Part shown: positions 23,801-51,348 of the stretch, piece by piece
Position numbering within the stretch: position 1 is the stretch's first letter
Layout: each line of letters begins with the position of its first letter
Source: Dehalococcoidia bacterium
Lineage (GTDB): Bacteria; Chloroflexota; Dehalococcoidia; Lucifugimonadales; Lucifugimonadaceae
Direction: 5' to 3'
Length of the DNA stretch: 64,000 bases
NCBI GenBank assembly: GCA_965204385.1
Contig: OZ241984.1
Coordinates: 2,644,984-2,708,983 of the forward strand
Notes under the pieces: generated by a model
What the model was told of the DNA's origin: nothing
The model's input: only the letters and a program-made list of their open reading frames with translations
Database searches by the model: none
Program-made: the position numbers and the translations under genes

Positions 23801-23804
23801 CGCT

Positions 23805-24770: not shown

Positions 24771-25717
24771 CGTCTCCTCAGCCTTGGATTCACTACCTCG
24801 TCGAGGGAGCGTCCGACGAGGTAGAAGGCGGAACATAGCAGGGTGATTGACAGGCTGGCCGGGAATATCAGCCACCAGAACTCGGCGACTTGGAGAAGGT
24901 ATCCAGCCGACTCGGTAGTGTGAATCATCAGTCCCCAACTCATCCGCACGTTGAGCAGGCCGAGGAAGCTCAGCACCGCTTCGGAGAAGATCGCGCTGGT
25001 GACGGTGAACATCATGTAGAGGAACGATAGCGGGAGTAGATTCGGCACGATATGCACCATGATGATGTGGAAGTGTCCGCCGCCCGCGCTCCTAGCGGCA
25101 TCGATGTATGGCTTAACTACCACGGACAGTGCCTGGGATTTCAGCACCACGCCAGTAGCGCCGAAGCCGGAAAGGATGCCGATCAACAGTGCCAGTTCGA
25201 AGTGTTCGACGCCGATTAGCGCGCTGAGCACGATGAGCACACTGATGGCGGGCATCATGATCATGATGTCGGCGAGCCTCATCAGGATCGTGTCGACGAT
25301 ACCCCCGAAGTATGCAGCGATCGCGCCTACCGATGTTCCGATGACGACAGTTACGGTTGCGGCGAGCAGGCCGAGCAGGAACTCCGACCTTGCGCTGAAC
25401 ATGAGCTGGCTGAGAATATCCCTGCCGAGTGGATCGGTTCCCAACGGGTGCTTCAGGCTTGGCGGCGCGGGTTGCTTAGTTTCGTCGAACGCGTAACCGA
25501 TGACCGGATCGTAGATGCGCGGTTCCCAGACGGTGTTCATCAGGATTGGGTGCGCCAGAGCGAGGATCGCGTAGGTGACTATTATCGCCAGTCCCAACAG
25601 GCCGATGCGAGTTCGGATGAAAAGCCCCCAGTTTTCGCGAATGGATCGAGAAGCCAGCCTCAGGCGGGCTCGCCAAACAGAGCTCGGTACGGCAGGTTGA
25701 GCGTCAATGGTTGCCAT
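24767..25717 (-). CDS. oppC: Peptide ABC transporter permease (OppC/DppC type)
   Basis: BPD_transp_1-like core plus the typical 'HPLGTDPLGRDILS' N-terminal motif. The start was set at 25717 (MATIDAQ), with a 1-nt TGATG overlap with oppB. Confidence 0.85.
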   Translation of the reverse strand: MATIDAQPAVPSSVWRARLRLASRSIRENWGLFIRTRIGLLGLAIIVTYAILALAHPILMNTVWEPRIYDPVIGYAFDETKQPAPPSLKHPLGTDPLGRDILSQLMFSARSEFLLGLLAATVTVVIGTSVGAIAAYFGGIVDTILMRLADIMIMMPAISVLIVLSALIGVEHFELALLIGILSGFGATGVVLKSQALSVVVKPYIDAARSAGGGHFHIIMVHIVPNLLPLSFLYMMFTVTSAIFSEAVLSFLGLLNVRMSWGLMIHTTESAGYLLQVAEFWWLIFPASLSITLLCSAFYLVGRSLDEVVNPRLRRR

Positions 25718-26865
25718 CAGTACCGGATCCTCGGGTCGAGATACGCGTACAGGATGTCCGCAACAAGGTGGGCGACTAGGACGAAGATACCGACGAATAC
25801 GAAAGCGCCGACTGCCAGCGGAAGGTCTTCTGTCAGCGTCGCCGATACGAGCGTCTGGCCCATACCGGGCCACGAGAATATCGACTCTGTGATGACGCCG
25901 CCATCTACCGCGAATGCGAGGCTGAAAATGAAGCTCGTGACGACCGGGAGCAGGGCGTTACGTGCGACGTGCTTGTCGCGGACGGCGCGCTCGGGTAATC
26001 CCTTCGCACGCGCGGCCATCACGAAGTCCTCCCGCATCGTTTCGAGCATGCTATTGCGGGTGAGGAGCATTGTGCCAGCGAAGCTGATCAACGTGAGCGT
26101 CGCAACGGGCAGGACCATGTGCCGCAAAATGTCCCAAGCGTAGGTCATCGTCCCCGACGCCATCCATACAGCAGCCACGGCGAGAGTAGCCAAAACCATG
26201 CTGACGATGCGTATGATACGTGCGTTGCTCATCCGCCTTTGCGCCGTGATAACGAACACTGTTAGCACGACGAATGACACCGCGAATGCTGTGATGATCA
26301 TCTGAGTGAACACCGAATTGGCGTCTACGGGTGCATCTCGCCATAAGACGGGATCGAGGAATTTGCCTATCGGGAACCAACCCGCTTTGAAAGCGAAGAG
26401 CCAGATCATCATCAGTCCGAACCACGGAGTGAAGACCGTGTAGAGCGTGACTCCGCTGACGGTGGAGGTGTATTCGAACCATCCCCCTCTCCGCCACGCG
26501 ACGACTTTTCCGAGGCCAAACCCAAGATAGAAGGAGAGCGCGGTCGCAGTCATGAACAGTACTACCGTCCTGGGCAGCCTCTCTTTGATGACGTCGGCCA
26601 CCGACCTCGGGTAGTGACTGAAGGAGATGCCGAAGTTGCCGGTGAAGGTATTTTTGATGTGGACTACGTACTGTTTCCACAGCGGTTCGTTCACGCCGAA
26701 CAGATCTTGTAGGCGCTCTCGCGTCTCTGGTGGCACATCAGGATTCAGCGCGTAGAAGTTGCTGACGTCTCCGGGTTGCGCGTTGACGATGAAGAAAACG
26801 AGCGACAGAAACACGAAGAGCGTGACGAGGATCTGCGCCGTCCTCTTCAGCAGGTACTTGGCCAT
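25717..26865 (-). CDS. oppB: Peptide ABC transporter permease (OppB/DppB type, long form)
   Basis: 'MAKYLLKRTAQILVTLFVFLSLVFF' is the typical OppB N-terminus, and the C-terminus is 'ADILYAYLDPRIRY'. Confidence 0.85.
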   Translation of the reverse strand: MAKYLLKRTAQILVTLFVFLSLVFFIVNAQPGDVSNFYALNPDVPPETRERLQDLFGVNEPLWKQYVVHIKNTFTGNFGISFSHYPRSVADVIKERLPRTVVLFMTATALSFYLGFGLGKVVAWRRGGWFEYTSTVSGVTLYTVFTPWFGLMMIWLFAFKAGWFPIGKFLDPVLWRDAPVDANSVFTQMIITAFAVSFVVLTVFVITAQRRMSNARIIRIVSMVLATLAVAAVWMASGTMTYAWDILRHMVLPVATLTLISFAGTMLLTRNSMLETMREDFVMAARAKGLPERAVRDKHVARNALLPVVTSFIFSLAFAVDGGVITESIFSWPGMGQTLVSATLTEDLPLAVGAFVFVGIFVLVAHLVADILYAYLDPRIRY

Positions 26866-26904
26866 CAGCCGGTCTTAAGGATCACGTCGGTAAAACTCCC
26901 GCTA

Positions 26905-26962
26905 CCCCGCCTGTGGCTTCCGGATTTCGCTGGAATGACGAAATGTTCTGCCGAAATGACGA
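26905..26962. repeat. REP-like element, family B ('ggcttccggatttcgctggaatgacg...ccgaaatgacg')
   Basis: Degenerate copy of the 4760-4812 element. Confidence 0.6.
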
Positions 26963-27020
26963 ACGGTTGCGCGGGGTGACGGGGTTTCGGGGTGGTTTCA
27001 CGACAAGGGGAGTGGGTTTC

Positions 27021-29114
27021 CTATTTGATCACTACTTCCTGTTGCATCCCGTTCTGTTGTTCCAGTCCGCCGAGCACCGAGGTGTAGGGGAACTCGATCC
27101 GTGACGGGCGGTACGCGTCCAACTTCGGTGTGGTGAATAGCGGCACGTAGGGCAGTTCTTCGGCTAGGAATTCTTGGAGTTGGAAAACCTTTTCGCGCGC
27201 TCCATCGATGGTCGTTTCAGAGAGCAGTCCAAGAGAGAGTTCGTCGAACTGGTTGTTGGCGTATCCGCCCCAGTTGTAACCGCCGCCGATCTCCGGGGAG
27301 TGTCTGCTGTGGAAGAAGTTCTCGAGGTAGTCCGGGAAGATCGAGAGTCCCCATCCGAGCATCCACATGTCGAGGTCTTCCGCGACGGTATCGCTGAAGA
27401 GCTCGTCTACGATCACGTTGAAACCGGTGAGGTGGGCGCGGACCGGTATCCCGATGTCGTTCATCCACCGGTCGGCCCAGATCGCGAATGTAGACCGCAT
27501 GGGATCGTATCCCGCGCTTGGCGCTATAAGCGTCATCTCGGGTACCGGCGTGCCGTCGGGCATCTTGAGACCCTTGCCTTGCTTGGCGACGAAGTTGCCG
27601 TCCTCGCTGATCTCTGGCTCTTCCTCGTATGTGAATCCCGCGCTCTTGAGAAGCTCGACGGCTTGGGCTATCCGCTCGCCGCGGCTCAAGTCCTTGCCGT
27701 AGGTCGGCACGTCTGCGTTGTGCCAGAACTCGTTGCCCTCGGGCACCATCGCATAGACAGGTATGGCCGCGTCTTGGAGGACTGTCCTTGCGACGAACTC
27801 CTTGTCGATTACCGTGGCGATGGCTTGTCTGAACTCGGTGATGTCCATCGGTGGTTTACGGACGTTGAAGCCGATGTATCGGACGCCGTTGTTGGCGTTC
27901 GTGGCAATCTGAAGGTCAGGGGTGTTCCTGACGCGGTCGAGGAAGCCTTTTTCGAGTCCTAGCGGGTTGAATACGTAGTCGATGTCGCCCTTTGTGAGAG
28001 CTAGGATCGCCGCATCTTGGTTGCCGTAGATGCTGAAAAGTTCGGACTCGACGTGTGGCCCGACGGTGTACTCGAGGACCTTGTCGCCGCCGGCTTCTCC
28101 GAAGTAGGTTGCGGAGTGTCCTGTTCGGTCATTGGACACCGAGTAGGCACCGTTGTCGTACAACGTGACTACCGTTCCGCTGTCGAAGTAGTTTGGATCG
28201 GTGTTGTTCTCGAAGAAAGCGCCGGGCTCCCACTTGTTAAAGGTGAAGCCGCCGAGTGTAGGCTCACCTTCGGGCACGTGCGCGAACAGTGCTTCTTGCT
28301 GCTGCTCGGCCTCACCAGCTTTTTTGGCCTCATCGACAACCGGTGCCCAGTAGTGCTCAGCGAGCACGGGCATGAAGCCGAGGCCGAATTGCCAGACGCT
28401 CAACCCGGGTGTCTGCGGATTGCCTTCTTCATCCGCGGTCTTGAAGTAGACCTTCAGCGTGTGAGAGTCAAGTGCTTCGACGCGGTCGAGGAAGGCTTGG
28501 TCGACCACTGATGCCCAGTTCGACGAGAGGTTCAAGTCCATGACGGTGTTAACGGTGAAGACGAAATCGTTTGCGTCCAGAGTTTCGCCGTCGCTCCACG
28601 CGACGTCGTTCCTGATGGGAACTTCTGCGGTCCAGAACTCGCCGTCACCGACGGTCTCTTTGATCAAATCTGTCGGGAAGTCGGCTGCGAGGCCCGGTAC
28701 CCAATCAAATCGCTGGTCGGAGTACCCGTACAACGCGCCGGAGTGACCGTCGAGCACGTACTGGGTCCATACAGAACCGGCTGGGCCGCCGTAATAGTTC
28801 CAGAAGTTCCTAGAGATCGGTTCCTCGAAAATGCCCATCTGGTAGATCGGCGGGCCCGCTGAAACCTCCGGCTCAGGAGTGGGTTCGACAATCTTTTCGA
28901 CTTCGACGATCTTCTCCACCACCTTTTCGACCTCGACCTCTTTGATGACCTCCTTCTCCACCTCCACTTCTTTGATGACTTCCACCGGCACCTCTTTGAT
29001 GATGGTGACGGGTTCCGGTTCATCTTGGCAAGCAGCAAGCAACACCGTTGCCAATACTGCCAATGTCAAGACCGTTTTTGTGGGCGTTTGGGGCGCCGGC
29101 AACGATAGCTTCAT
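27021..29114 (-). CDS. oppA: ABC transporter substrate-binding lipoprotein, family 5 (peptide/nickel type)
   Basis: Lipobox 'VLLAAC' after MKLSLPAP (ATG 29114), a long VE/K-rich tether, then an SBP_bac_5-like body. The 203 upstream codons of ORF 27021..29723 run through repeats and into the neighbouring gene and were rejected. Confidence 0.85.
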   Translation of the reverse strand: MKLSLPAPQTPTKTVLTLAVLATVLLAACQDEPEPVTIIKEVPVEVIKEVEVEKEVIKEVEVEKVVEKIVEVEKIVEPTPEPEVSAGPPIYQMGIFEEPISRNFWNYYGGPAGSVWTQYVLDGHSGALYGYSDQRFDWVPGLAADFPTDLIKETVGDGEFWTAEVPIRNDVAWSDGETLDANDFVFTVNTVMDLNLSSNWASVVDQAFLDRVEALDSHTLKVYFKTADEEGNPQTPGLSVWQFGLGFMPVLAEHYWAPVVDEAKKAGEAEQQQEALFAHVPEGEPTLGGFTFNKWEPGAFFENNTDPNYFDSGTVVTLYDNGAYSVSNDRTGHSATYFGEAGGDKVLEYTVGPHVESELFSIYGNQDAAILALTKGDIDYVFNPLGLEKGFLDRVRNTPDLQIATNANNGVRYIGFNVRKPPMDITEFRQAIATVIDKEFVARTVLQDAAIPVYAMVPEGNEFWHNADVPTYGKDLSRGERIAQAVELLKSAGFTYEEEPEISEDGNFVAKQGKGLKMPDGTPVPEMTLIAPSAGYDPMRSTFAIWADRWMNDIGIPVRAHLTGFNVIVDELFSDTVAEDLDMWMLGWGLSIFPDYLENFFHSRHSPEIGGGYNWGGYANNQFDELSLGLLSETTIDGAREKVFQLQEFLAEELPYVPLFTTPKLDAYRPSRIEFPYTSVLGGLEQQNGMQQEVVIK

Positions 29115-29290
29115 GACTAAACTCCCTCGCTTCTGATGACAGTCTACAGGCGATACGAAGCCGCCTCTCATTTTGGTGACGCGTTGAAGGAGACCGTTGC
29201 AGAACCTTCCCCCTTTGCCCAAATCGGCAAGGGGGAATTGAAGGGTGTTTAGACGCGGATCTGGCACTCCCTGCGAACTGCGACGCGCTG

Positions 29291-29500
29291 CCCCGGCGCC
29301 TCTGGATGGGTGTTCCGTGCCGTCAACGGTCGGCTTTCGCCGGAATGCTGTGAGTTTTGCGAGGGGCTCGTGGATCGGGGGCAACCCGGCGGCGCGTCCG
29401 GCCCGGGGCACTCCCTTTAAATCCCCCTCGGAGAGGGGGAGGGAAAGTAGCTTCGCTCTGCGTCCCCTTTCGCTCAGCGAAAGGGGACGCAGGTGTTGGT
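29291..29500. repeat. Composite intergenic repeat (family B core plus family A-like 'cgctctgcgtcccctttcgctcagcgaaaggggacgc' hairpin)
   Basis: Shares 'cggctttcgccggaatg' with family B. It shares the 'gcgtcccctttcgct...gcgaaaggggacg' hairpin with 38935-38968. Confidence 0.6.
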
Positions 29501-32500
29501 TTAGGGGAGGGTTATGGTGGCGTGGACGCGTTCGCCTTTGCCGGTTTCGTTTTGGCCCCTTACCCAGATCAAGTATGTGCGGCCCGGCTCCAGTTTGTTG
29601 TATGTGACCTTGGTCTTGGTAGCCTTGGGCCTCTTGGTTTTGCCGCTGCCGTGCTCGCCGTCTTCGGGTTTGAGATGGACGATGTAGCCGTTGGGCGCGC
29701 CGCCGGTTTCCGGTGCGCTCCACGTCACCGTTACGCTGTCCTCCGTCCGGGCAGTGACCTCAATTGAGACGACTGGGCCGGGCAGTTCGACCGTCTGTTG
29801 CTGTAGCTCAAACTGCGCTGCGGGGACCGTCACATCGAAGGTGTGGCTGACGCTGTTGCCGTCGGAATCCTGCGCGGTCACCGTGATCGTCGCCGTGCCT
29901 TCGCTCTTTCCGGTAACGGTCAGAGTCGAATAGTCGGCAGAGACTGATGCCGTGGCTACCGCATCGCTCGACGAATTCGCCGTCACCGTCAGCCCGTCTC
30001 CGTCGGCGTCGGTGAAGACGCCGGAGAGGGAGACTTCGTGGGGCGCGTCGATCTCCAGTTCGCTCACGTCGGCGATGGCGGATGCCACCACTGGCGCGGC
30101 TTTCACCGTGACGGTGAAGGTGTCGTCGACTGTTCCGCCGTTGCCGTCGTCGGCGGTTGCTGTGATCGTCGCCGTGCCGCGTGACTGGGCGGAAACCGTG
30201 AGCGTGGAGTAGTCGGAAGCGACGGACACGGTTGCGACGCTGTCGTCTGAGGATGCGGCGGTGATCGTCAGGTCGTCGCCGTCTGCGTCGTCGAAGACGC
30301 CGGACAGCGAAACTTCGCGTGTGCCGCTCGTGTTGACGATGGTGGCGTCCGAGATCGCGTTCGCAACCGTGGGCGCCTGGTTCGCAGGGGCCGGCACCGT
30401 GACGTCGAAAGCGTCGCTGACGCTGTTGCCGTCGGAATCCTGCGCGGTCACCGTGATCGTCGCCGTGCCTTCGCTCTTTCCGGTAACGGTCAGAGTCGAA
30501 TAGTCGGCAGAGACTGATGCCGTGGCTACCGCATCGCTCGACGAATTCGCCGTCACCGTCAGCGCGTCTCCGTCGGCGTCGGTGAAGACGCTGGAGAGAG
30601 AGACTTCGTGGGTTGCCTCGATCGCCAAACTGCTCACGTCGGCGATGGCGGATGCCACCACTGGCGCGGCTTTCACCGTGACGGTGAAGGTGTCATCGAC
30701 TGTTCCGCCGTTGCCGTCGTCGGCGGTTGCTGTGATCGTCGCCGTACCCCGCGTCTTGGCCGTAACCGTGAGCGTGGAGTAGTCGGAAGCGACGGACACG
30801 GTTGCGACGCTGTCGTCTGAGGATACGGCGGTGATCGTCAGGTCGTCTCCGTCTGCGTCGTCGAAGACGCCGGACAGCGAAACTTCGTGGGTGCCGCTCT
30901 CGTTGACGATGGTGGCGTCGGCTATGGAGCTTGCGACGGTGGGTGCCTCGTTGGGCGCGCCGACGGGCGTGGTGTGCACTCCCTTGGTCCGCACCCACTT
31001 GCTGGAATCCCCGCTTCGCTCGCTCATGTTGTTGCGATGCCCGACCGTGGAGCGGATGAAGACGCCGGTGGCGACATCGTTTTTGAGTCCGGTGATGGTG
31101 TATGTCTTCACGCCTGGGTCGACGGACACGCCGTCGTTCTTTCCGACGGCTCTGGGGTCTCGGTGGTTTGCCCATACGCCGAACTCTTGGCTCCAGCGCA
31201 GGGCGTGCCAGATCTCCGAGTCCTCGTAGCCTTCGCGTGAGGAGATGTTCCAAGTCACGGTCAGCGTGCCGTCGCCGGGGACCACCTGGATGTTCCACGG
31301 CTCCAGCCCCACGTCGTCGTTGACGATGGTGACGGCCGTCGTGCCGGTCTTGCCGGGCTCGACGGCCCAGAGCGGCTCGCCGACGTGCGTGAGCGTTACG
31401 GTGAGGCGTTCGTCCGCCTCGATCTCCTCGTCCTGGACGGTGGGCACACTGATGGTCGCGCTCCGCTGGCCCTCCGGCACCGTGACCGTGCTGACTATCT
31501 CGCCCACGTCATCGGCGGTCACGCCGTCGCCGTAGTCGGTCGTCACGTTGAACGTCACGCCGCCGCTGGTCGCGGGGCTGCCGAGGCTGACGGTGACCTG
31601 TCCCGTTTCGCCCTCTGTCACGCGCAGGTCCGGGTTCACGCTGAAGGTGCGCGGCGGCGGGTCGATGATGACGAGGTGGGTTTTGCTCTGGTCGCCGTTG
31701 GTTACCCTGACCCACACGTATGTGTTGGCCTTGTGGGCGTTTAGCGGGATCGCCCCGGTCAGGCCGTTTGCGCCCACCGCGGTGAAGGTGTTGGGCGGTT
31801 GGTCGTATGTCCCCTTGCCGTACTCGATCGTGCTTCCGGGCCAGTCCCCGCGCAGCAGCAGCTTGGCGTGGGTGGTGATCGCCTTCTCCCTGGTGTTGAT
31901 GCTGACGAACTCGCCCGGGATGACGGCGACCAGCGCCTGGCCGAGCGTCGCGTGGGGCTTGGCCTGCGCGATGTCCCAGCGGACGAAGCCGTCCACCGGC
32001 TGCCCGTTCTTCATCTCGTCGTAGTGGACGCGCACCTTTTGCAGGCCGGTGGTGACCGGGATGATGCGCACCCCGACCTTTGAAAACGCGCCCCAGGCCA
32101 GGGCGCCGCCTGTCTCCACCCAGGTCCAGGTGTTGGTGTTGCCCACCCGGTTCTCGTGGCGGATGGGCAGCCGGATCGACTGGCCGTTGTCCGTCAGCTC
32201 CAGGGTCGTGCCGTTGAGGTCGACGGTTCCGCCGTGCTCCTCCACGGTCAGTGTGACGCGGCGGGAGACCTCGTCGTGGCCGTGCCGAGCCACGAACTCG
32301 ACGGTGAGCTCCTTGATGTAGTAGCTGCGCAGCCCGCCGTACTTGGGCGCGTTGACCGAGAATCGGTTTCCTCCGATGACGCTGGGGTCGCCGCAGTCGA
32401 TGTCGCCGCCGCATCCGGCCTTGGCGTGGCTGTTGTTGATGCTGCGTGCAATCATGGTCGGCTGCCACTCCGTCACGCTGGGGCCGACCGGGTTCAGGTA

Positions 32501-35500
32501 GAGGCCCACGTCGACCAGCTGGTCGACCGCGTGCTCGTTCAGGGCGATGCCGGAGTCGAACCATTGGACGGTGTCCCCGTCGTCGTTCAACACGCCGTCC
32601 CGGAGCGGGAACGAGCGCCCGTCGAAGACGAGCGTCAGGCTGTTGCGCAGGCTCTCCGGGATTGCCTGCGTGAAGGTCAGGACCAGGGTTCTCGGCACGT
32701 TGTCGCCCAGGGACCTGGACCACATAGCGAAAATCCTGACTCCGCCGTATTGCCTGGAGGCCCGCCAGTCGTTGTCGCCCCGGCTTTCCGTGTCGGTTGA
32801 GGACCAGCCGGGCGCGCCGGCGAAGTAGAACGTGTCCTGCGAGAGCGTGGACGTGTCGTTGCAGCGGTCGCCCTCAGCGACATCAGTGTGGTTTTCGCAG
32901 CCCAGGAAGGACCCGTCGTCATAGAGGTCCCGCATGATCAATACGGAGGTCCAGACAGTGTTCCCGAGCTGCCCTGCCGCTCCGCCGCCGCCCGCCGACA
33001 GCACGAACAGGTAATTCTCGATAGTCCCAGAGAGCGCCGTTACAGCCACAGTGACTCTGCCCGCGCGCACCGGGATGGCGGCGCTGGACGCGCCGCTGGC
33101 CGTCGCCACTGTGTTCACCGTCATCGTGGCCTCGGGGTGATTCGCGGTGGGGGTGAACTTGACGTGGGTCGCGTTGGGCGAGATCTCAAACGTGTAGGTG
33201 CGCGTGGCCGGATCGAACTCCGGGCTCAGCTTGCCGCTGCCGGGGAAGGTCGTGCCGCCGTCCGCGCTGAAGCTGAACGACAGCGCGCTCAGCGTCGTGT
33301 CGTGGGGGTTGACCCTCACCGCCACGGAGGCGATGGAGAGGCTGCTCGGGTACTTCGGGTCGGTGCTCGTGGCGGCGTGCGTGATCGTGGACGAGCCCCC
33401 GGACACGCCCGTCACCGTGAACGTCTGCGCCACGTTCCAGTTGGTCGCCGTGAACGTGCGCGAGGCCGGCGCCACCGTCGCGTACGCCGGTGTGCCGCTG
33501 GTCGCCGCCACCACGACGCTCGCCGTGGGCTGCGAGTCCAGCACCACCGTGTAGGTCGTTGTCGCTCCGTCCTCGACGTCGCGCGTGGTCTCGCTGACCG
33601 TCACCCCGGCGGTGTCGTCGTCGCTGATCGTCAGCGTCACGCCCGTGACGGTCAGGCCGCTCACGGTGGTCGTGAGGATGACCGTCTCGTTGTCCTCGTC
33701 GACGTCGTCGTTGACGATCGTGACCGTACCCGTGGCGGAGCTCTGGCCCACGGCGATCGTGAATGCCGCGGGCAGCGAGTAGTCCGCCGTGGCCGTGGCG
33801 GTGCCTGTGGCGGTCAGCGTCACCGATACGGCCGTCGTGGCCGGCCGGTTCAGGGTGGCCGTGACCGTGACCGAGCCGCCGCTCTCGGCGATGGTGTTGC
33901 TCGCCGCGTTCGTCGTCAGCGCCAGCGTGCTGGGAGGCTGCGGCGTGACCGTCACCGCCACGGAGCCGATGGAGAGGCTGCTCGGGTACTTCGTGTCGGT
34001 GCTCGTGGCGGCGTGCGTGATCGTGGATGAGCCCGCGGCCACGCCCCTCACCGTGAAGGTCTGCGCCGTGTTCCAGTTCTGGGGCGTGAACGTCCGCGAC
34101 GCCGGCGCCACCGTGGCGTTGGCCGGCGTGCCGCTGGTCGGGGTGATCGTGACGTTCGCCGTGGGTTTCGAGTTCAGCACCACCGTGTAGGTCGTCGTCA
34201 TCGGCACCTGGACCGAGCGCGCGGTCTGGCTGACCGTCACCCCGGCGGTGTCGTTGTCCGTGATCGTCAGCGTCACCGGCGTGACCGTGAGGCCGCTCAC
34301 CGAAGTCGTGAGGATGACCGTCTCGTTGGCCTCGTCGATGTCGTCGTCGACGATCGTGACCGTGCCCGTGGCGAAGCTCTGGCCGGCGGCGATGGTGAAG
34401 GCCGAGGGCAGCGAGTAGTCCGTCGTCCCGGTGGCCGTGCCCGTGGCCGTCAGCGTGACCGAGACGGCCGTAGTCGCCGGCCGGTTCAGGGTGGCCGTGA
34501 CCGTCACCGTGCCGCCGTCCTCGGCGACGATGTTGTCCCCCGCGGTCGTCGTCAGCGCCAGCGTGGTGGGCGCCGTCTGCGAGGCGGCCATGACGGAGGC
34601 CGTCACCGAGGCGATGGTGATGCCGCTATAAGCCGTATCGGTGCTCGTGGCGGCGTGCGTGATCGTGGACGAGCCCGCCGCCACACCCGTGACCGTGACG
34701 GTCTGCGTCTGGTTCCAGTTGGTCGTCGTGAACGTCTTTGCCTGGTTGGTGACGGTGGCCACGCCCGTCGTGCCGCTGGTGGGCGTGACGACGACGCTCG
34801 CCGTGGGCGCCTTGTTGAGCTTGATCGTGTAGGTCGTCGTCGAGCCTGTGACCACGCTGGCGAACGTCTTGCTGACTATCACCCCCGCGGCGGGCGTGGC
34901 GGTGGGCGTGCCCGTCTGCGAGCTGGACCAGTCGCCCCAGCCGTTGCCGCTCTCCGGCTGCCCGTCCGTCGCCCGTACCTGCACGTGGTAGGACGTGCCG
35001 TTCGTCAGCCCCGTGATCTCGGCCGTGCCGTTCGTGCCCGAGGGCGTGATCGTGACCCAGCCCGTGGACGGGTCGCCCGCCGTGGTCGCGGTCTGGTTGC
35101 TCGCCGTCGTCACCTTGTAGCGGAGCTCGTAGCCCGTCACCGGCCCCACCGGCTTCGACCACGACGCCGTCAGCTTCTGCGCCCCCGCCGTCAGCGACAG
35201 GCCCGACGGCGCCGCCGGCGGGTCGTTGTCCCAGATGGTCACCAGGGTCGTGGCAGCCGTGCCCACGGTGTAGCCCGTGCCCGCGTTGAGCGTGATCTTG
35301 AACGTCTCATGCTCCTCGTTCACCGAGTCGTCCTCAATATTAATTTGGGGCATGAACGTGTACGTAGCGCCGGCTGCCGCCGTGAACGTCGTGGGATAAC
35401 CCGTCTCCAGGTCCGCGCTCAGGCTGGCCGGGTTGGTGTCGCCCGCCGCAACGGTGACCGAGCCGCTGATAGCGGTCTCGGTCTGGGTCTGGAGCCGCTC

Positions 35501-38462
35501 ACCGACAAGTCCCCCTTCAGAAACGGTGCGCCCTGCAGCCAAACTGATCGTAACCACAGGCGTCCCGGTGCCGAACGCCCAGGCGCCGTCTCCGCTGCTG
35601 CTCTCGGCGCGCACCCGCCACCGGTAGGTACGGCCGTTGTCCAAGCTTGAGAGCGTCTGCGACGCCGTGGGCGGCGAGGTCTCCGTGCCGCGCGCGGCCG
35701 CGACCCAGGCCGTAGCCGGATTGCTGCCCGAAGCCGCCGCGTCGTTGGCCACCATCCCCGTGCCCGTCGACGGGGCATAGGTGTAGTGCACGTCGTAGCC
35801 GGTCAGTGTCCCGGCAGGCGCGGTCCAGCTCAACGCAAGCGAACCATCACCCGCGTCGGCGGACAGCGCCGTGGGCGCGGCCGGCGTGACCGTCACCATC
35901 ACGGAGCCGATGGAGAGGCTGCTCGGATACTTCGTGTCCGTGCTCGTCACGGCGTGGGTGATCGTGGATGAGCCCGCGGCCACGCCCGTCACCGTGAACG
36001 TCTGTGCCGTGTTCCAGTTGGTCGCCGTGAACGTGCGCGACGCCGGCGCCACCGTGGCGTTGGCCGTCGTGCCGCTGGTCGCCCCCACCACGACGTTGGC
36101 CGTGGGTTTCGAGTTCAGCACCACCGTGTAGGTCGTAGTCGAGGCCGCCTGGACCGAGCGCGTGGTCTGGCTGACCGTCACCCCGGCGGTGTCGTCGTCC
36201 GTGATCGTCAGCGTCACGGGGGTGACCGTGAGGCCGCTCACCGTGGTCGCGAGGATGACCGTCTCGTTGTCCTCGTCGATGTCGTCGTCGACGATCGTGA
36301 CCGTGCCCGTGGCGGAGGTGGAGCCGATGGGGATCGTGAAGGCCGAAGGCAGCGAGTAGTCCGCCGTGCCCGTGGCGGTGCCAGTCGCCGTCAGCGTCAC
36401 CGAGACCGCCGTCGTGGCGGCGCGGTTGAGGGTGGCCGTCACCGTGACGTTGCCGCCGTCCTCGGCGATGGTGTTGCTCGCCGCGTTCGTCGTCAGCGCC
36501 AGCGTCGTGGGCGGCTGCGCCGTGCTGTACATGGGCTGCCGCTCCCCGCCGTTCACCTGGATTTGCCGCACGTTGTTGGAGCTGGTCCACGTAGACCCCG
36601 ACGGCGACGCCGAGTTCTGCCAGCGTGCGGTGTTCGCGATGCCCCAATCGGTCTCGTACCCCGTATCCTCAGAGGTCGACGTCGTCCAGTCGATATTGAG
36701 GCGGCCACTTTGGGTTAGGGTCGGGTCGTAGAGCACGAAGTGGTAGGTCGTGTTTGCTGCAAGGTGGGTGCCCGCGGGCGCAGTGAAGACTTCGATGGAC
36801 CTGCTGTTGACCCCAAGGGAAGATGGCCTCGTCAGGTCGGCGAGCTTGGCGTTGGGGGAGCCGTTGTTGTCGGACCACAGCTCCCCGGTAAGGCTCGTGA
36901 TGACGATGTTCTCGACGATTTGGATTAGGACGACCCCGATGCTGGTCAGCGCGTACCCGTCGCTGTGGGCGCCCGTCCTGAACGCCTGGGCGTGCGTGAA
37001 AGCGAAGCCGCCCTTTTGCGGGCCCGCGGGCGTCTGCCCCGTGTTGCTCACCAGCGTCGACGGCGCAAGGACCGTGGCCGTGACGGAGGGGAGGCTCAGG
37101 CTGCTCCCGTAGTTCGTGTCCGTGCTGGACGCCGCGTGCGTGATCGTCGACGTCCCCGCCGTCACGCCCGTGATGGTGACCTCCTGCGCGTCGTTCCAGT
37201 TGGTCGTGGTGAAGGTGAGGGCGCTGGAGACCGTCGCCACGCCCGTCGTGCCGCTCGACGGCGTGATGGTGACCGAGGCTGTGGGCTGCGTGTTGAGCTT
37301 GACCTCGTACACCTCCGTGGAGCCGTCGATGACGCCGACGGCGGTGGAGCTGAGGGTGATGCCGGGCGTGGCCGTCTTGGCGGCGCCCTTGACGCTGAAG
37401 GACAGCACCTCGCTGTTGCCCAGTTCCGTCCAGGGGACAAACTGGTTGCCGGTGTGGGTGTTAGCGGTGTTCGCGATGCTGAAGCCCGCAGCTTTGCCTG
37501 CGTCCTCATTGTCGCTCTCCGTACCGCTGAGCAGGAGATTCACTCCCCCGGTCCAGGCGCTTGAACCGATCACCACGTAGTACGTCGTGCTTGCCGCGAG
37601 GGTGGTGCCCGTGGGCGCAGCGAAGGTCACGGGCCCCGTCGTCACGCTCGATGCCGTCGATGGCACGACCAGGTCCGCAAGCTTGGTGCCCAGGTCGTCA
37701 AGACCGGTGGTCAGCGCCGCACCGCCTGAAGTCCACACCGACGCGGTCAGCGTGCCCAGGTGAGCGTCCGTCAGGCTTGCAGTTTTGGTGGCGACATGGA
37801 AGTCGATGCCCGTGAGCGTGTAGCCGGCGGCGTTGCTCCCCGTCGTGAACGCGGTGACGTACTCATCGCTGGGCCGGTAACCGCCTGAGCCCGTTGCCTG
37901 CCCCACATTGCTGACCAGGCTGTCGGTCGCGGCGCGCGTGACGACGATGGTGTAGGTCTTGGTCGTCGTGCCGTCCTGGGCCGTGACCTTGACGTTGATC
38001 TCGTTCGCGCCCACGTCCAGCGCGAGCGCGCTGCTGGCCGAGCCGCTCGTCACCGTCGCCAGGGTGGTCCCCTTGCCCGCCTGGATGGTCGCGCTGGCGT
38101 GGTTCCTGGTAGGCGTGACCTTGATGTGCGTGACGCTGTTGGTCACCGTGGCGATGTAGTCCTCGGTGGCCGCGGCGAACGCGGGGTCGAGGGTGAGCGT
38201 GCCCGTGAAGGACGAGCCGTCGGTGCTGGTGCTGCCGGTGAGGGCGCTGAGGGTGGCGTCGGTGGACTGGGCCTGTGCATGGGCGGGCGGCGCGTGGTTG
38301 ACGAAGAAGACCGACAGCGCAAAGAGCGCGACGGTCAGGAGGAGGAGCGGAGAGAGGCGGAGGGCTAGGTTAGAACGGTTGTTTGAATATAGGGGGGGGG
38401 GTAACTGGCATGGTCGACCGCAAGACGTGTGTCTTGCTGTTGTGGTTTCCGGTGTCGAGCAT
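29501..38462 (-). CDS. Giant secreted repeat protein (cadherin-like beta-sandwich, Calx-beta, FN3, Ig-like domains); its 5' end needs a -1 correction in a G10 tract
   Basis: The continuous frame runs 29501..38467 (the track starts it at GTG 38146). It encodes a signal peptide 'RSNLALRLSPLLLLTVALFALSVFFVNHAPPAHA/QAQ' with no in-frame ATG/GTG/TTG. ATGs at 38462 (SD AGGAGG, 10-nt spacer) and 38411 lie in the adjacent frame. Calx-beta signatures 'TADYSLP..FTI..G....TVTIVDDDIDE.NETV'. FN3 'LSWTAP...GY.V.Y'. There is no LPXTG at the C-terminus. Confidence 0.8.
29819..30958. repeat. Tandem 570-bp duplication (2 copies) inside the giant gene
   Basis: Antisense shadow ORFs repeat at exactly +570 nt (29691/30261/30831 and 29952/30522). 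The encoded 190-aa units 'APTVA..I.DATIVN.SGT.EVSLSGVFDDADGDDLTITA...' are about 93% identical, with stretches over 150 nt identical. Confidence 0.85.
38392..38401. repeat. G10 (C10 on the coding strand) homopolymer at codons 4-7 after ATG 38411
   Basis: Run length is confirmed by the plus-strand ORF 38166..38513, which reads '...EYRGGGNW...' (agg ggg ggg ggt). Confidence 0.95.
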
Positions 38463-38472
38463 GGTTGTCATG

Positions 38473-38478
38473 CCTCCT
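38473..38478 (-). promoter_or_regulatory. Shine-Dalgarno AGGAGG for the giant gene
   Basis: Plus strand 'cctcct', 10 nt upstream of ATG 38462 on the minus strand. Confidence 0.6.
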
Positions 38479-38711
38479 ATAGCCCAACGTCTAAGTCGGA
38501 TTCCCCAAGTTAGGTGATCCGCGCGTTCCTGTTCGGAGCTTCAGGATAGTACAGGATATCAAATCGTCTTAACTGCCTGTACATCTCCATATGCTGCGTA
38601 ATTGTTGAGTTCATATTTGTGTAACTCAACGTATAGTACAGCGCGAGTCTAGATTGCGCTGCGGGCGCGCTGTAAATGTCCATCCAGAGGGGCAGTGGGC
38701 GACGCGGCCAT

Positions 38712-38970
38712 TACGCGCCCCCTTCGTCCTTCTGCCACGTCGTAGCCGTAGTTACTCGGCGTGGCACATTTCCCCCGTGAGCGGGGGAAACCCGGCCGCC
38801 CTGCAACCCCGGGCATACCCCTGCGTTCGCTTCGCTCCCGCGTCCCCTTTCGCTTTGTCCTTCGGACATTTCCCCGTGATCGGGGGAGACCCGGCCGCCC
38901 TTCTGCCCCCGGGCATACCCCTGCGTTCGCTTCGCTCCCGCGTCCCCTTTCGCTGGGCGAAAGGGGACGG
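38712..38970. repeat. Mosaic intergenic repeat, family A, with internal ~110-bp tandem duplication
   Basis: The head 'cgcccccttcgtccttctgccacgtcgtagccgtagttac' is followed by two copies (38766-38854, 38876-38954) of 'acatttcccc.gtga.cggggga.acccggccgccc....cccccgggcatacccctgcgttcgcttcgctcccgcgtcccctttcgct'. Other copies lie at 44750-44938 and 51349-51472. Confidence 0.85.
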
Positions 38971-39255
38971 TGGTTGTAACGCCGCGCACCGCATCGGGTG
39001 TCCACGAGGGTTTGGCCCAGCGGTGTTTGTTGTTTGGTTGGGTTAGGGAAGGTTGATGGTGGTGCGGACGCGGTCGCCTTTGACGTTTTTGACGATGGTT
39101 GTCGGGGCACAACCAGCACCGGCACTCGGAAGAGTCGGCTTCGTGCCGCCTGCTACGCCGCGACGATGGCTGTGATGTAGGTTCTGAATAGGTTGCGGAG
39201 GCGCCATAACAAGCATTTTCTGCTGCGAATGCTCTGGTCGGCGTGAGGACGACGA

Positions 39256-41304
39256 TCAGAGCAGTTCTCTTCTGAAACTCTCGACCCATCGTCGCTGATG
39301 GTGTGGCAGACCGTTTACGCGCACGTCGAGGTCTATCGAGACGTGGAACGCGTCGCGAGTGCTGCGGACGTTGGCTGAGGTGTCAACATTGATCACGCCG
39401 TCGGTTCGGGTGATGGTCCTGAAGTGTTGCCCGATGGCCGTCGTATCGGCGGGGTCCCGATTGTTCGCCCACACCTCCAACTTCGATTCCATCTTTATGG
39501 TTATGTCGTTGCTGGCACGGTTCTCGTCGACACGGTGCAGCTTTAATCCGGTACGATCCCTTAGCAAGTCCTGCGTGATTTCCCATGGGATCAAATTGGG
39601 AGAGCTGACCGGATACTGAGTCGGGTTGGCGGACGGCTCGTACTGCATCTCGTCGGGCGGCAATTCGCCATCGGCGGCTCTCCGGGTTGGGACAACTGGG
39701 AGTTCGAGGTAGGACTCGTGCTCGTTGTCGCGGTAGATGCGGTTAGTTCCGTTGTACGGCGTTGGCCATAGGTTCGGAAAGTCGGCGCTGCTGATGGAAA
39801 GACGGACTCTGTGGCCGGGTTGGAATCTCCATGCTGTGGCATCAAGATCGATGTGCAGTTCGTAGGCTTCACCCGGCTTCATGGGCTCCGGGTCGGTGAG
39901 CGAGTTGCGACGAGTTCCGTTGAGTACGCCGATGGTGACTTGCGCGCTCTTACCGTCCGGGGCGACGTCTGAGAGACGGGCCACGAACGCCATTACCGGT
40001 GCGGTCGAGCTGGCGTGGATCACGGCCTTGCCCATACCGATGATTTCGAGCGGTTCATCCAATGGTTCGGAGGTGTAGTTCACCGAATAGATTTCGTCAA
40101 TACGCTGGTCGCCGGGCAAGCCATAAGGTACGCCCGCGCTCCAGAGACCGCCTGCAATGCCCACTGACGGTCGGTACTCGTACTCGTCATAATCGTCGCA
40201 GGCGTTAAAAGGATCGTTTGGACACAACTGGTCACCGAGATTAAACCGACGCGTCGAAGCGCCTGGGATGGGGAAAGACGGTTCGCATCGCCAGTAGCCG
40301 GAGGTGCGGGTGCGGAACGCATCCGGCACGTCGAATGTTTGGACGTAGACGTTGATATCAGGCTCGTCCATGATGCCGTTTTCGATGCCTTTGAGCCAGT
40401 AATCGCACCAACGGACTGTGAGATGCTCGCGCGCCAGCGATGGGCCCGGTGTTTCGCAGTCCGGGCCTGAGTGATTCCAAGGGCCGATGAGCACCTTGTT
40501 TGGAGCCGTCATGTGTTGTGATGTCCTGAGTGGCGAATTGCAGTAGCCGTCGCGCCATCCACCGATGAGCAGCGCCGATGCCTTGATGTCGTCGTAGCGG
40601 CCGCGAATGCTGCCGTCTCGCCAGTATTCGGAATCAGTTTGATTGGCGAGCCATGTTAGGAGGTAAGGAGTGTTCTGCTCGAGGCGCGCCTCCCAAAGCT
40701 CAGCCCATCTTTCTCCGCTGTACTCGGGGTACGGCGGCATCGAGTTCATGCCGATCATGGAGCATCCGTAAGCGCCGATGTCGTAATAGCAACGCCACGC
40801 TCCACCGCGATAGTGGCAATCGTCGGTGTATCTGTCATCGGTGTAGTTCCAAGGGATGATCGTCACGAGATGTGGCGGCGCCAAAGCCGCGACCTGCACG
40901 CTTGTGAACCCTCCGTACGAGCCGCCGGTCATGGCAACTTTGCCGTCGCACCAGTCCTGATCGGGGATCCACTCGACAACATCGAAACCGTCGCGCTGTT
41001 CGACAATGCGATACTCGTCGTCGTTCGCCCCTTCGCTAGAGCCAGTGCCGCGACAGTCGACACGTGCACCGATGTAACCGTGTTGCGCCCAGTGGTGTTG
41101 CATTCCCGTTAATGGTTGCTGGTCGTCTTTGCGGTACGGGATGTAGGTGAGGATGACGGGCCAGGGGCCTACGCCCTCTGGAATGTGAATGTCCATCGCG
41201 AGTTTGGTACCGTCACGAGTAGGTGCCATGATGTTTTTGACGAATCTGATGCCGTCTGCGCTGACCGCCATTGGTCGGACGCCAGAGTAGGTTTCGTTTG
41301 CCAT
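39256..41304 (-). CDS. CocE/NonD-family hydrolase (X-Pro dipeptidyl-peptidase S15-like)
   Basis: 'APTRDGTKLAMDIHIPEGVGPWPVILTYIPYRKDD', 'ARVDCRGTGSSEG', 'VAMTGGSYGG' (nucleophile elbow GxSxG) and a C-terminal beta-sandwich. ATG at 41304. Confidence 0.85.
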   Translation of the reverse strand: MANETYSGVRPMAVSADGIRFVKNIMAPTRDGTKLAMDIHIPEGVGPWPVILTYIPYRKDDQQPLTGMQHHWAQHGYIGARVDCRGTGSSEGANDDEYRIVEQRDGFDVVEWIPDQDWCDGKVAMTGGSYGGFTSVQVAALAPPHLVTIIPWNYTDDRYTDDCHYRGGAWRCYYDIGAYGCSMIGMNSMPPYPEYSGERWAELWEARLEQNTPYLLTWLANQTDSEYWRDGSIRGRYDDIKASALLIGGWRDGYCNSPLRTSQHMTAPNKVLIGPWNHSGPDCETPGPSLAREHLTVRWCDYWLKGIENGIMDEPDINVYVQTFDVPDAFRTRTSGYWRCEPSFPIPGASTRRFNLGDQLCPNDPFNACDDYDEYEYRPSVGIAGGLWSAGVPYGLPGDQRIDEIYSVNYTSEPLDEPLEIIGMGKAVIHASSTAPVMAFVARLSDVAPDGKSAQVTIGVLNGTRRNSLTDPEPMKPGEAYELHIDLDATAWRFQPGHRVRLSISSADFPNLWPTPYNGTNRIYRDNEHESYLELPVVPTRRAADGELPPDEMQYEPSANPTQYPVSSPNLIPWEITQDLLRDRTGLKLHRVDENRASNDITIKMESKLEVWANNRDPADTTAIGQHFRTITRTDGVINVDTSANVRSTRDAFHVSIDLDVRVNGLPHHQRRWVESFRRELL

Positions 41305-44659: not shown

Positions 44660-44938
44660 AACGTTTGTCCTTTTCGTAAGACGAAAGGGGCGCGAGCGCA
44701 GCGAGCGGGGTATGCCCGGGCGGATGGGGCGGGCAGGCAAGGCGGCGACGCGCCGCCTTCGTCCTTCTACCACGTCGTAGCCGTAGTTACGCTGTGTGGC
44801 ACATTTCCCCGGGGAGCGGGGGCAACGCTGCCTCCCGTCCGCCCCGGGCATCCCCTGCGTTCGCTTCGCTCCGCGTCCCCTTACGCTGAAGCGAAGGGGA
44901 CGGTGCACTGGCGACCACGAGGGATCGCCCCTACGAGA
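44660..44938. repeat. Mosaic intergenic repeat, family A copy preceded by an inverted partial unit
   Basis: 44750-44938 aligns with 38712-38860. 44667-44728 is the reverse complement of the 'cccgggcataccc...gcgtcccctttcg' module. Confidence 0.8.
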
Positions 44939-46549: not shown

Positions 46550-46640
46550 TGTCGGATGAAGTGGTCTCTTTTGAACTGGGATGGGCGGGATTGGAATGAT
46601 GGACTGTGATTTGAGGCGTGTCTGGTTGGCCTGCGGGTGA

Positions 46641-46765
46641 GTTGCAGGTTTCGGTTGTTTGGTTGGGGGGACGACCGCAAGGGTTCGCCCCTACGGGTGG
46701 TTTACGGGCACCCTCACCCTAGCCCTCTCCCATCAAGGGAGAGGGGATTGTGGGATTGGTTTTTC
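46641..46765. repeat. Composite intergenic repeats
   Basis: 'gttgcaggtttcggttgtttggttgg' matches 1732-1757. It also holds the hairpins 'ggggacgaccgcaagggttcgcccc' and 'ccctctcccatcaagggagaggg', and then the 'gattgtgggattgg' motif also seen around the GxxExxY gene. Confidence 0.65.
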
Positions 46766-47426
46766 GAATCATCGCCGCGTCGATTGGGGTCATCGCGTGC
46801 GGTTCGGGGTTTGTAATTTATAAAAAGCCAGCGTAGGCGGTGTCGCCAGACCATCCGCCGTTCGGGCCGCTCGCCGATAGGTTCCGCGTCCCGTCTTCAC
46901 TCAGTTCTTCACTCCTCGTTAGCGCTGTGTACCTCGCCCGCACGACGTCGCGGACAGGCGTGTGTGGATAGGTGGGAGAGTCGCCCGAACCTTTAACGTG
47001 GATCGATGTTTCACAGGCGACCATTGGGATGGTCGCGATGCGGACATCGATCCACGCCTGGCTTGCAAGGCGGAGCCAGCCACGCTCCGCGAACGGGCAC
47101 CGAAGCAAAGTATCTCCTCCGTAACCGGTTTTGTGGTCGCGTTTCGCCCGAACCTATCATGGGCTTGCAGCGGGTTCCGTCGCCTTGCGTCCGTGGAGCA
47201 GTCGATTTCACCGTCGAGACGGCTTATAAGGTCGCCCACGTCCGCCCGGTTAGCCCCGCCCGCGGACCTTTCATTATTGTTGTCGTTGTCAGCAGCATCG
47301 AAATCGGAGAAAGGTGCACGCTCTCCCGCTCGACGCGGCGATGGTTCTGAGCGCTCTCGCCGGCGGTCGATAAGCCGGACTTGGCGCTTGGTGTTGATAA
47401 TAATACATATGTTGTATTGATGTCAA

Positions 47427-47486
47427 GTCTGAATTGGGATTCTTGGGATTGGATGGGGGATTTTTGGGATTTTGTTGTTGGTTGAA
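47427..47486 (+). repeat. Left copy of ~60-bp direct repeat flanking the GxxExxY gene
   Basis: 'gtctgaattgggattcttgggattggatgggggatttttgggattttgttgttggttga', compared with the right copy at 47966. Confidence 0.8.
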
Positions 47487-47584
47487 GGGGGTTTTGGTCG
47501 GGATGTGGCGTGGTGGTGGTGGGTTGGTTGATGTATGCTTGCGTGTTCAGATATTGGTTTCGTCGGTTTTTGGAGGTCCGTTTG

Positions 47585-47971
47585 ATGTTGGATGATGCGA
47601 GTTTGAAGCATCAGGAGTTGACGCATCGGATTATTGGCTGTGCGATGAAGGTGCATCGAGGGATCGGGTACGGGTTCCAGGAGGTGATTTATCAGCGTGC
47701 CTTGAGGTCTGAGATGGAGCGTGCCGGATTATCGTTTGAACGGGAGTGCGAAATGCCGGTGTTTTACGAGAGGGAGCAGGTGGGTACGCGTCGGGTGGAC
47801 TTTTTGGTGGAGGGTGTGGTTCTGGTGGAGTTGAAGGCGGTTTCGATGTTGGATGATCTGCACTTGGTGCAGTTGAGAAACTACCTGCAGGTGTTTGGGT
47901 TGGAGGTTGGGCTGTTGTTGAACTTCGGGGCTCGGAGTTTGGAGTTCAAGCGGTTGAGGCATGTTGTCTGA
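47585..47971 (+). CDS. GxxExxY protein (PD-(D/E)XK-like family)
   Basis: 'LTHRIIGCAMKVHRGIGYGFQEVIYQRAL..E.....L.FERE...PVFYE...VGTRRVDFLVEGVVLVELKA' carries the eponymous G-F-Q-E-V-I-Y motif. ATG at 47585. Confidence 0.85.
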   Translation: MLDDASLKHQELTHRIIGCAMKVHRGIGYGFQEVIYQRALRSEMERAGLSFERECEMPVFYEREQVGTRRVDFLVEGVVLVELKAVSMLDDLHLVQLRNYLQVFGLEVGLLLNFGARSLEFKRLRHVV

Positions 47972-48026
47972 ATTGGGATTTGTGGGATTATTTGGGGGAT
48001 TTTTGGGATTTGGTGTTAGTTGGTGA
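47966..48026 (+). repeat. Right copy of ~60-bp direct repeat flanking the GxxExxY gene
   Basis: 'gtctgaattgggatttgtgggattatttgggggatttttgggatttggtgttagttggtga'. It starts 3 nt before the stop codon. Confidence 0.8.
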
Positions 48027-48209
48027 GGGATTCTGATTGGGTTTGCCGTTGGTTGTTGTTTGGAGGTCGTTGGGGATCGATTTGTCGGCGATGGCGGTGA
48101 AGCTGGTGGAATAGCGGGCTGGGAATGAGCTTGGGTTGATGTGTGGTGTTCAGGCTATTGCTCGGCCGGATATTCCGAAGCGGATAGATCCTGAGCCGGC
48201 GCGCCGCCG

Positions 48210-48434
48210 TTGAGCGAGTCGAAGGTGGTGTTGTATGGGACGCAGGGCGGGAACTGCAACGGGTGTGGGATGCATTTCTTGCCGCAGCATCTGACGGTGG
48301 ACCACATCATCGCACGGTCGGAGGGTGGGACTGATCACCTTGACAACTTGCAGCTGCTTTGCGGGCACTGCAACTCGTTGAAGGGGGATCGTCCGATGGA
48401 GTATTTGCGGTCGCGGTTGGTGAGGGCTGTGTAA
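48210..48434 (+). CDS. Small HNH endonuclease
   Basis: 'CNGCG......LTVDHIIARSEGGTDHLDNLQLLCGHCNSLKG' (CxxC...DH...N...CxxCN). Only a TTG start is available, and the frame opens just 5 codons earlier. It may be a stand-alone remnant of a longer gene. Confidence 0.7.
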   Translation: MSESKVVLYGTQGGNCNGCGMHFLPQHLTVDHIIARSEGGTDHLDNLQLLCGHCNSLKGDRPMEYLRSRLVRAV

Positions 48435-48435
48435 A

Positions 48436-48448
48436 GGGGGGGGGGGGG
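48436..48448. repeat. G13 homopolymer between two convergent gene ends
   Basis: The run length is confirmed by the antisense ORF 48150..48467, which reads 'ITPPPPL' (acc ccc ccc ccc cct). Confidence 0.95.
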
Positions 48449-48459
48449 TGATTTGAGAC

Positions 48460-49608: not shown

Positions 49609-50030
49609 TGCTCCACCTCGTGCCCACAGTTTAGCGCGTCGAAATCCGCGTACGGCCACCAAGTCCAATGGGCTGGGTTTTTGAATGTCTTCGCGATGTA
49701 TCCAGAACCTAGACCTAGTTCCATTCTAAAGATGCGCATCGCGCCCCTGAATTCTCGTTGTCGACTTTTGACTGCATCCAGAGTATCCCATACGGAAAGT
49801 CCTGATGCTTCGCATTCCGCTCCCTTGTAGACTCGGTCAGGGAACTTCTTGCTTTCGGAATCGAAGTCCCGTTGTTTGGGCGGGATCGAACGCACCAAAC
49901 GATACACGACCCGAGTCTCGACGATTTCGGTTGCTCCGACGCTCTCAGGGCAACCTTGAGGCAAATCCTCCCTGAAATCACTCAAGCCCAATTCAAAAGC
50001 AGACACGTCGCCCCACGAACTTTCAGTCAT
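49605..50030 (-). CDS. Hypothetical protein (141 aa), first gene of a two-gene operon
   Basis: ATG at 50030. 'VVYRLVRSIPPKQRDFDSES...ASGLSVWDTLDAVKS...HWTWWP'. I recognise no family. Confidence 0.6.
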   Translation of the reverse strand: MTESSWGDVSAFELGLSDFREDLPQGCPESVGATEIVETRVVYRLVRSIPPKQRDFDSESKKFPDRVYKGAECEASGLSVWDTLDAVKSRQREFRGAMRIFRMELGLGSGYIAKTFKNPAHWTWWPYADFDALNCGHEVEQ

Positions 50031-50830: not shown

Positions 50831-50900
50831 TGGTTGCCGTGCCTTGGGACGCTCCAGTGTTGATTCTACTGCCTGTTCTCCGATCCTATGGATGGACGTT

Positions 50901-51312: not shown

Positions 51313-51348
51313 GGTGTTGATGGGGTTAAGGATAGTTTAGGGGTGGTA

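Follow-up and report, generated by a model that had tools for sequence, protein, structure and literature searches.

Homopolymer-driven phase variation is textbook biology in a handful of host-adapted pathogens. A candidate for such an element, a run of ten cytosines (C10) close to the start of a giant gene for a predicted secreted protein, is described here from a Dehalococcoidia bacterium (Chloroflexota). The run lies on the minus strand of a stretch of 64,000 nucleotides (nt) (assembly GCA_965204385.1, contig OZ241984.1, positions 2,644,984 to 2,708,983), which was analysed as a whole and is referred to as the window. The C10 run is probably a slipped-strand contingency locus, and it belongs to a conserved 5' cassette that stands before the giant gene.

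In Neisseria, a multigene family of adhesins, opa, carries CTCTT repeats in the coding region of the signal peptide. As in opa, the putative hypermutable repeat of the present locus stands past the start codon and ahead of the hydrophobic core of the signal peptide, where the reading frame would decide between ON and OFF, and a conserved 5' end is common to several paralogous surface-protein genes per genome. Unlike the cassette, the opa repeat is a pentamer; the proteins and leaders are unrelated, and the opa hosts are human-adapted Proteobacteria. The opa genes also have neither a second internal Shine-Dalgarno (SD) sequence and start codon nor an upstream open reading frame (ORF), both of which are found in relatives of the cassette.

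Runs of G or C, about 8-14 nt long, have been described from the 5' coding regions of contingency genes in Neisseria meningitidis (nalP/mspA), Campylobacter jejuni and Haemophilus, with several loci per genome forming a phasome (PMC3723659, PMC6321876, PMC5084427). These tracts resemble the one described here in that a G/C run lies in the 5' coding region of a gene for a secreted or surface protein and slippage shifts the frame. They arose independently in unrelated genes, whereas here one homologous leader cassette precedes many genes, and the cassette tracts reach 17-26 nt and occur in uncultured Chloroflexota. In Listeria monocytogenes, slippage at the 5' poly(A) of inlA has been measured to be about 1,000-fold more frequent than point mutation (PMC2831843). 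The inlA run likewise lies a few codons into an adhesin gene and leads to either a truncated peptide or the full protein, but it is an A7 in a single gene, compared with C10-19 in a family cassette. An out-of-frame ORF reached via a slippery run is also known from prfB-type +1 frameshifting and from transcriptional slippage (Thermus dnaX, IS630-family transposases); those sites have a fixed length and phase and conserved stimulators, whereas the length and phase of the cassette vary. A search of literature full text turned up no description of such loci from Chloroflexota or from symbionts of sponges. The cassette tract most likely acts as a homopolymer slippage switch, of a kind new to this phylum though known elsewhere.

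An initial annotation of the window, made from the letters alone, had proposed a leader with its own SD, a start at ATG 38462, a second in-frame ATG downstream at 38411 and a stop at TAA 38372-38370, and reading of the minus strand returned the same coordinates throughout (Table 1). Another ATG in frame with the leader, at 38471, is too close to the SD. The translation of the leader frame is MLDTGNHNSKTHVLRSTMPVTPPPIFKQPF; it crosses the C10 tract, which lies 20 codons past the leader start. The giant gene occupies the neighbouring frame, which is open from 38467 (directly after TGA 38470-38468) to 29501 and comprises 2,989 codons, with an uninterrupted body of 2,963 codons. Immediately past C10 this frame encodes LYSNNRSNLALRLSPLLLLTVALFALSVFFVNHAPPAHA/QAQ, a textbook signal peptide, as had also been noted. 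A frame scan found no ATG, GTG or TTG before GTG 38146, which rules out an alternative start inside the frame of the giant ORF. This GTG lies 82 codons past the tract and 43 codons past the AHA/QAQ cleavage site; the initial annotation was right about the lack of earlier start codons and wrong about this latter distance, which it had put at about 75 codons.

Setting the run to C9 or C12 in silico joins the two frames into one ORF of about 2,986-2,989 codons (2,986 aa, amino acids, from ATG 38462), as had been predicted for runs of 9 or 12, and C10 and C11 yield peptides of only 30-32 aa. In this frame arithmetic, a change of one repeat unit switches between the full-length and the truncated product. 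The product itself combines a signal peptide with Cadherin-like, Calx-beta, fn3 and Big_2 repeats, and its export to the surface or the medium is predicted.

The C10 tract is far above the background run length and lies in a 5' coding region. G/C runs in the window fall about 4-5 fold with each added base (67 of length 5, one of length 6), the expected number of runs of at least 10 is far fewer than one, and the only runs longer than 6 are the G10 of the plus strand and a G13. The spectrum is bimodal in 180 kb of related loci, which hold 6 runs of length 7 and 20 of length 10-26, with lengths 8-9 unrepresented. A chance origin of C10 was rejected on both spectra. Selection for polyproline was likewise rejected as the cause of the pure C run, because CCC makes up 17.7% of the proline codons in the genes of the window and CCC-CCC occurs in 0 of 86 of their Pro-Pro pairs.

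The cassette is found well beyond this gene. With the repaired N-terminus as query, shorter paralogues (P0022, P0025, P0028 and P0033) were retrieved whose signal peptide is nearly the same, and their upstream DNA holds a module made up of ATAGGAGGCAYGAYAGCC-ATG, a leader about 20 codons long, MF(D/N)..SSRVRRLLRAAMPxT, and a pure C run. The same SD-ATG-leader-poly-C module, alignable at the nucleotide level, stands upstream of homologous signal peptides in about 20 genes for secreted proteins from Dehalococcoidia metagenome-assembled genomes (MAGs) and metagenome contigs (loci L002, L004-L009, L016-L020, L022, L023, L025, L026, L029, L031 and L032). The signal peptide of the window is homologous to those of the four paralogues and of all cassette genes. 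Its leader, MLDTGNHNSK..MPVTPP, is homologous to the MFD(T/E)GS.SSRVRRLLRAAMPxTPP leaders of the other loci and also matches the true N-termini of two tract-less genes (L003:6768 and L005:1063). The SD motif of the leader, AGGAGGCAYGAYARCCATGYTC, is kept in all cassette loci and occurs once in the window, where 0 occurrences are expected by chance. A leader-motif scan that covered a single genome per species gave 24 matches, 18 of them in Dehalococcoidia MAGs, several of which are chromosome-level, with two or three copies per genome; the remaining 6 of the 24 are about the number expected by chance. A profile search added further cassette loci, as did the locus that encodes the closest domain homologue. 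Judged by the nucleotide-level homology of the cassette alone, the window would most likely be placed in Dehalococcoidia. The general leader pattern had one match in JGI metagenomes, which is uninformative, lying at a contig end.

The cassette genes encode predicted secreted Ig-like, cadherin-like, fn3 or Calx-beta proteins. Cadherin and fn3 classes have been reported as enriched in sponge symbiont MAGs (PMC8163846). This enrichment, a homologue from Candidatus Synechococcus spongiarum and the sample labels suggest that the window may come from a sponge. The syntenic relative L033 is 83-87% identical to the window in nucleotide sequence (94% for hydantoinase B), and its compared stretch is without the giant gene. 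The 5x contig L032 (8800-9700) has a duplicated leader segment and a C17 before a giant gene broken into many ORFs. At L001:3001-4707, a C14 lies in frame inside the non-homologous N-terminal leader of a related giant protein, which suggests that the poly-C strategy extends beyond one leader family.

Comparison with these loci, which are homologues and not an exact orthologue, finds the tract conserved in the cassette and variable in length. The tract lengths are 7, 7, 10, 10, 11, 11, 12, 12, 13, 14 (four times), 15, 16 (three times), 17 (three times), 19 and 26. Relative to the downstream ORF, 5 tracts are fused, 10 are at +1 and 5 are at +2, a distribution for which uniformity is not rejected (chi-square p = 0.29). 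In each of the 18 scored loci, no stop interrupts the frame of the main ORF between the tract and the signal peptide. In one pair of loci, a C17 in L004 corresponds to a C13 in L007; the two share about 98.7% identity across 3.5 kb and have only four internal indels, the tract being one of them. Polymorphic length between conserved flanks is thus seen both within this pair and across the cassettes. The longest tract, C26, comes from a short-read scaffold (L005:2885-2937), where it lies 13 nt from a second run, C14.

Two layouts of the cassette can be distinguished. In the commoner one, the gene has its own GGGAGG-N6-ATG about 45-60 nt past the tract. Most relatives keep this downstream SD and start, and their tract then lies in an upstream leader ORF and is not strictly intragenic. 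The three phases of the tract lead in this layout to a fusion of leader and gene, to a stop 22-49 nt before the start, or to a TGA overlapping the start (ATGA); the second codon of the gene nearly always begins with A, so that the start reads ATGA and overlaps the upstream ORF in one of its phases. The GGGAGG of the gene pairs with CCUCC at +13 to +18, with ATG or GTG in the loop (for example L002:4979-5032), and at 14 of the 16 starts this hairpin has -18 to -27 kcal/mol, those of L016 and L023 being weaker at -13 kcal/mol (loci L002-L009, L016, L019, L020, L022, L023, L026 and L029). The ATGA overlap and the SD hairpin suggest that translation of the upstream ORF and of the gene may be coupled. 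Variants also occur: one paralogue at L003 has its own start and no cassette, and in two other genes the leader is joined straight to the hydrophobic core, without a tract.

The second layout is start-less and is found in the window, L018, L025 and L031, where ..GTTCTA(A/G)..CTA.CCCTCCGCC.. and the signal peptide come straight after the tract. Relative to the commoner layout, the window lacks about 50 nt with the GGGAGG-N6-ATG. With no internal start, expression in this layout requires the right phase of the tract. The leader of L031 is the closest relative of that of the window, and its C15 is in frame at the tract; the other three start-less loci (window, L018 and L025) are out of frame.

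These features fit a translational switch with the following steps. The cassette, consisting of SD, ATG, a leader of about 20 codons and poly-C, precedes genes for secreted adhesin-like proteins in sponge-type Dehalococcoidia. The giant gene of the window appears to have lost its own ribosome-binding site and start codon, and would therefore be translatable only from the leader ATG 38462. With 3n C's (9, 12 or 15), MLDTGNHNSKTHVLRSTMPVTPP(P)LYSNNRSNLALRLSPLLLL... would read into the signal peptide and a body of 2,960 codons (ON), and about the first 23 codons of the leader would extend the pre-protein at its N-terminus. A tract of 3n+1 C's (10 in the assembly) would lead translation to a stop at TAA 38372, and one of 3n+2 C's to a stop two codons beyond it, both of which would be OFF. 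Slipped-strand mispairing in replication would alter the length of the tract, and the population would then be a mix of ON and OFF cells for the surface protein. To judge from the sequence, such switching may be reversible and of high frequency within a population, and the ON product may be exported and act in adhesion. The length of 10, and hence the OFF call, holds only as assembled; the true length may be 10 (OFF) or 9 or 12 (ON).

Table 1. Features of the giant-gene locus (window coordinates).
Feature	Coordinates	Strand	Basis or remark
Shine-Dalgarno sequence AGGAGG of the leader	38473..38478	-	Sequence reading; start site ATG 38462 lies 10 nt downstream
Leader ORF, as assembled	38370..38462	-	ATG 38462, 30 codons, TAA 38372-38370
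Poly-C tract, putative hypermutable element	38392..38401	-	Reads C10 in the coding strand and G10 in the plus strand
Remainder of n-region and signal peptide (..YSNNRSNLALRLSPLLLLTVALFALSVFFVNHAPPAHA/QAQ)	38276..38391	-	Without its own SD or start codon
Mature part of the giant secreted protein (predicted)	29501..38275	-	Cadherin-like beta sandwich, Calx-beta, fn3 and Big_2/Big_9 repeats
Conserved 5' untranslated region of the cassette	38479..38660	-	Upstream of the leader SD; nucleotide alignment with L031, L002, L004 and L005
7-bp hairpin GCAAGAC-acac-GTCTTGC	38420..38437	-	Within the leader; 18 nt before the tract

At the RNA level, C10 is predicted to be unpaired in the mRNA, and pairing of the C run with the SD was rejected because minimum-free-energy folds keep the tract single-stranded. 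A known family of cis-regulatory RNA was also rejected, as Rfam covariance models gave no match at E <= 1 in 38200-38900. Other loci have a different, GC-rich hairpin at the equivalent position of the leader, GCCGCCU..GGGCGGC (for example L002:4893-4913). At most loci the leader hairpin lies 11-18 nt upstream of the tract; its sequence differs between loci and it does not adjoin the tract. The hairpin may reflect conservation of structure or may be a by-product of the sequence coding for RRLLRAA.

The contingency-locus interpretation, already offered in the initial annotation, is supported by about 20 homologous cassettes with tracts of 7-26 in three phases, by the C17 and C13 of L004 and L007 and by the in-frame L031. 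Several points weigh against it. A strain-level orthologue was found neither by exact-protein look-up nor by a DNA pattern specific to the window in metagenome contigs, a sigma-70 consensus scan gave no promoter match on the minus strand, the in-frame product of L031 is only 123 aa long, and L025 has a spurious open frame. The tract comparison is one between loci and strains, made from assembled sequence. Many of the related contigs are long-read metagenome assemblies with a coverage of 1.5-36x, in which calls of long runs can be one base off, and a calling bias is possible: 10 of about 14 long-read loci are exactly one base too long (+1 phase), whereas 3 of 4 short-read loci are in frame. This last point leads to the explanation that the tract is real and its OFF state an assembly artefact, the true run being C9 or C12 and the gene in frame. 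The names of the related contigs are typical of long-read metagenome assemblers, some contigs have a coverage of only 1.5x-7x, and relatives of low coverage have many frame breaks inside their giant genes. A miscall is nevertheless unlikely, since the short C7 tract of L016, which comes from a chromosome-level assembly, is out of frame as well, all three phases occur, and tracts vary between loci by as much as 12 nt and, where the flanks are about 98.7% identical, by 4 nt, far more than one-base errors. It would also concern only the current state of the tract and is compatible with a phase-variable locus.

Expression from a fixed C10 could instead come about without any change in the DNA, by +1 frameshifting (slippage of tRNA-Pro on CCC-C) or by slippage of RNA polymerase, giving a constant fraction of full-length product. 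CCC-C is a classic +1-prone site, and runs of at least 9 identical bases can support transcriptional slippage, although the known slippage-prone runs are A/T and not G/C. The assembled state needs exactly +1, which is also the commonest phase in the relatives (10 of 20), and a hairpin is present upstream of the tract. Such recoding is nonetheless very unlikely: programmed sites keep their length and phase, whereas lengths of 7-26 and phases of 5:10:5, consistent with a uniform distribution, show that both vary freely here, there is no conserved stimulatory stop or rare codon past the tract, and the hairpin ends 11-18 nt before the tract and is not adjacent to it. The missing segment of about 50 nt with the gene's own SD and ATG, together with an out-of-frame tract in three of the four start-less loci, could also be read as decay towards a silent pseudogene. 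That the ORF of 2,963 codons persists uninterrupted makes this highly improbable, as do the occurrence of the start-less layout, together with a conserved signal peptide, in three or more further genomes, the open fusion frame and the L031 tract being in frame. Finally, the tract could act as a regulatory leader element, either in an upstream ORF with EF-P-dependent stalling on polyproline or as a C-rich site for loading of Rho. In most relatives it does lie in a separate upstream ORF that ends 22-49 nt before the start or at ATGA, the SD of the gene is sequestered in a hairpin at 14 of the 16 starts, and predicted folds leave the tract single-stranded. A regulatory upstream ORF or Rho site is plausible for the common layout. 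It cannot apply in the window, which has no downstream start codon to regulate and shows no PPP with synonymous variation; selection for polyproline would leave room for synonymous codons, whereas the runs consist of C alone, and neither the tract length nor the frame of the upstream ORF is conserved. As an account of the present locus, a regulatory leader is therefore extremely unlikely.

A broader reading of the slipped-strand switch is possible but doubtful: the cassette might be a portable three-state translational switch spread across many secreted-protein genes of sponge-associated Dehalococcoidia, in which the TGA overlapping the start would permit coupled re-initiation, with the start-less form of the window as a derived two-state ON/OFF version and the loci together making up a phasome of surface display. 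If phase variation were confirmed, uncultured Dehalococcoidia symbionts would stochastically vary their repertoire of giant cadherin-like/fn3 adhesins, with a bearing on persistence in a filter-feeding host or evasion of its phagocytosis, and a paradigm from pathogens would extend to an uncultured symbiont phylum. In practical terms, cassette genes are prone to be annotated in MAGs as truncated, start-less or pseudogenes, and tract lengths in long-read assemblies are neither to be trusted nor to be "polished" away.

The initial annotation had also drawn attention to a second long tract, the G13 at 48436-48448. The run is present, but it is not a 5' switch. It lies in the 25-nt gap between two convergent ORFs and is 3' of both, starting 1 nt past the stop of a 74-aa HNH endonuclease ORF (48210-48434, plus strand) and lying 11 nt from the stop of a DUF6575-like ORF (48460-49668, minus strand). 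Comparison with the leader motif of the window found no homology to the cassette. The G13 is part of a segment of about 4.9 kb (46577-51487) that also holds a PDDEXK_3 nuclease (47510-47971) and is absent from L033. Its candidacy as a second cassette was rejected on its position, its lack of leader homology and its place in this insertion.

A dispersed repeat of about 90-120 nt, with 86-93% identity between copies, occurs in the window at 38712-38830, 38866-38930, 44748-44864 and 51347-51436 and in the syntenic relative at L033:16457-16576. One copy and a partial tandem copy lie directly upstream of the cassette, and another lies at the edge of the 4.9-kb island. A 192-aa ORF without a Pfam match (38711-39289) overlaps the repeat and is probably spurious. 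The window holds a second giant gene (13077-21404), whose product of 2,775 aa contains fn3 domains and is predicted to be secreted; its signal peptide is an ordinary one and a homopolymer tract is absent, and an 883-aa ORF with a phage-integrase domain (10061-12712) adjoins it. Directly downstream of the giant gene with the C10 tract, and on the same strand, lies an oligopeptide ATP-binding cassette (ABC) transporter operon (22781-29723; SBP_bac_5, two permeases and two ATPases). Its 900-aa substrate-binding protein (SBP) ORF (27021-29723) overlaps the 3' end of the giant gene (29501) by about 220 nt, and the real start of this ORF is probably further in.

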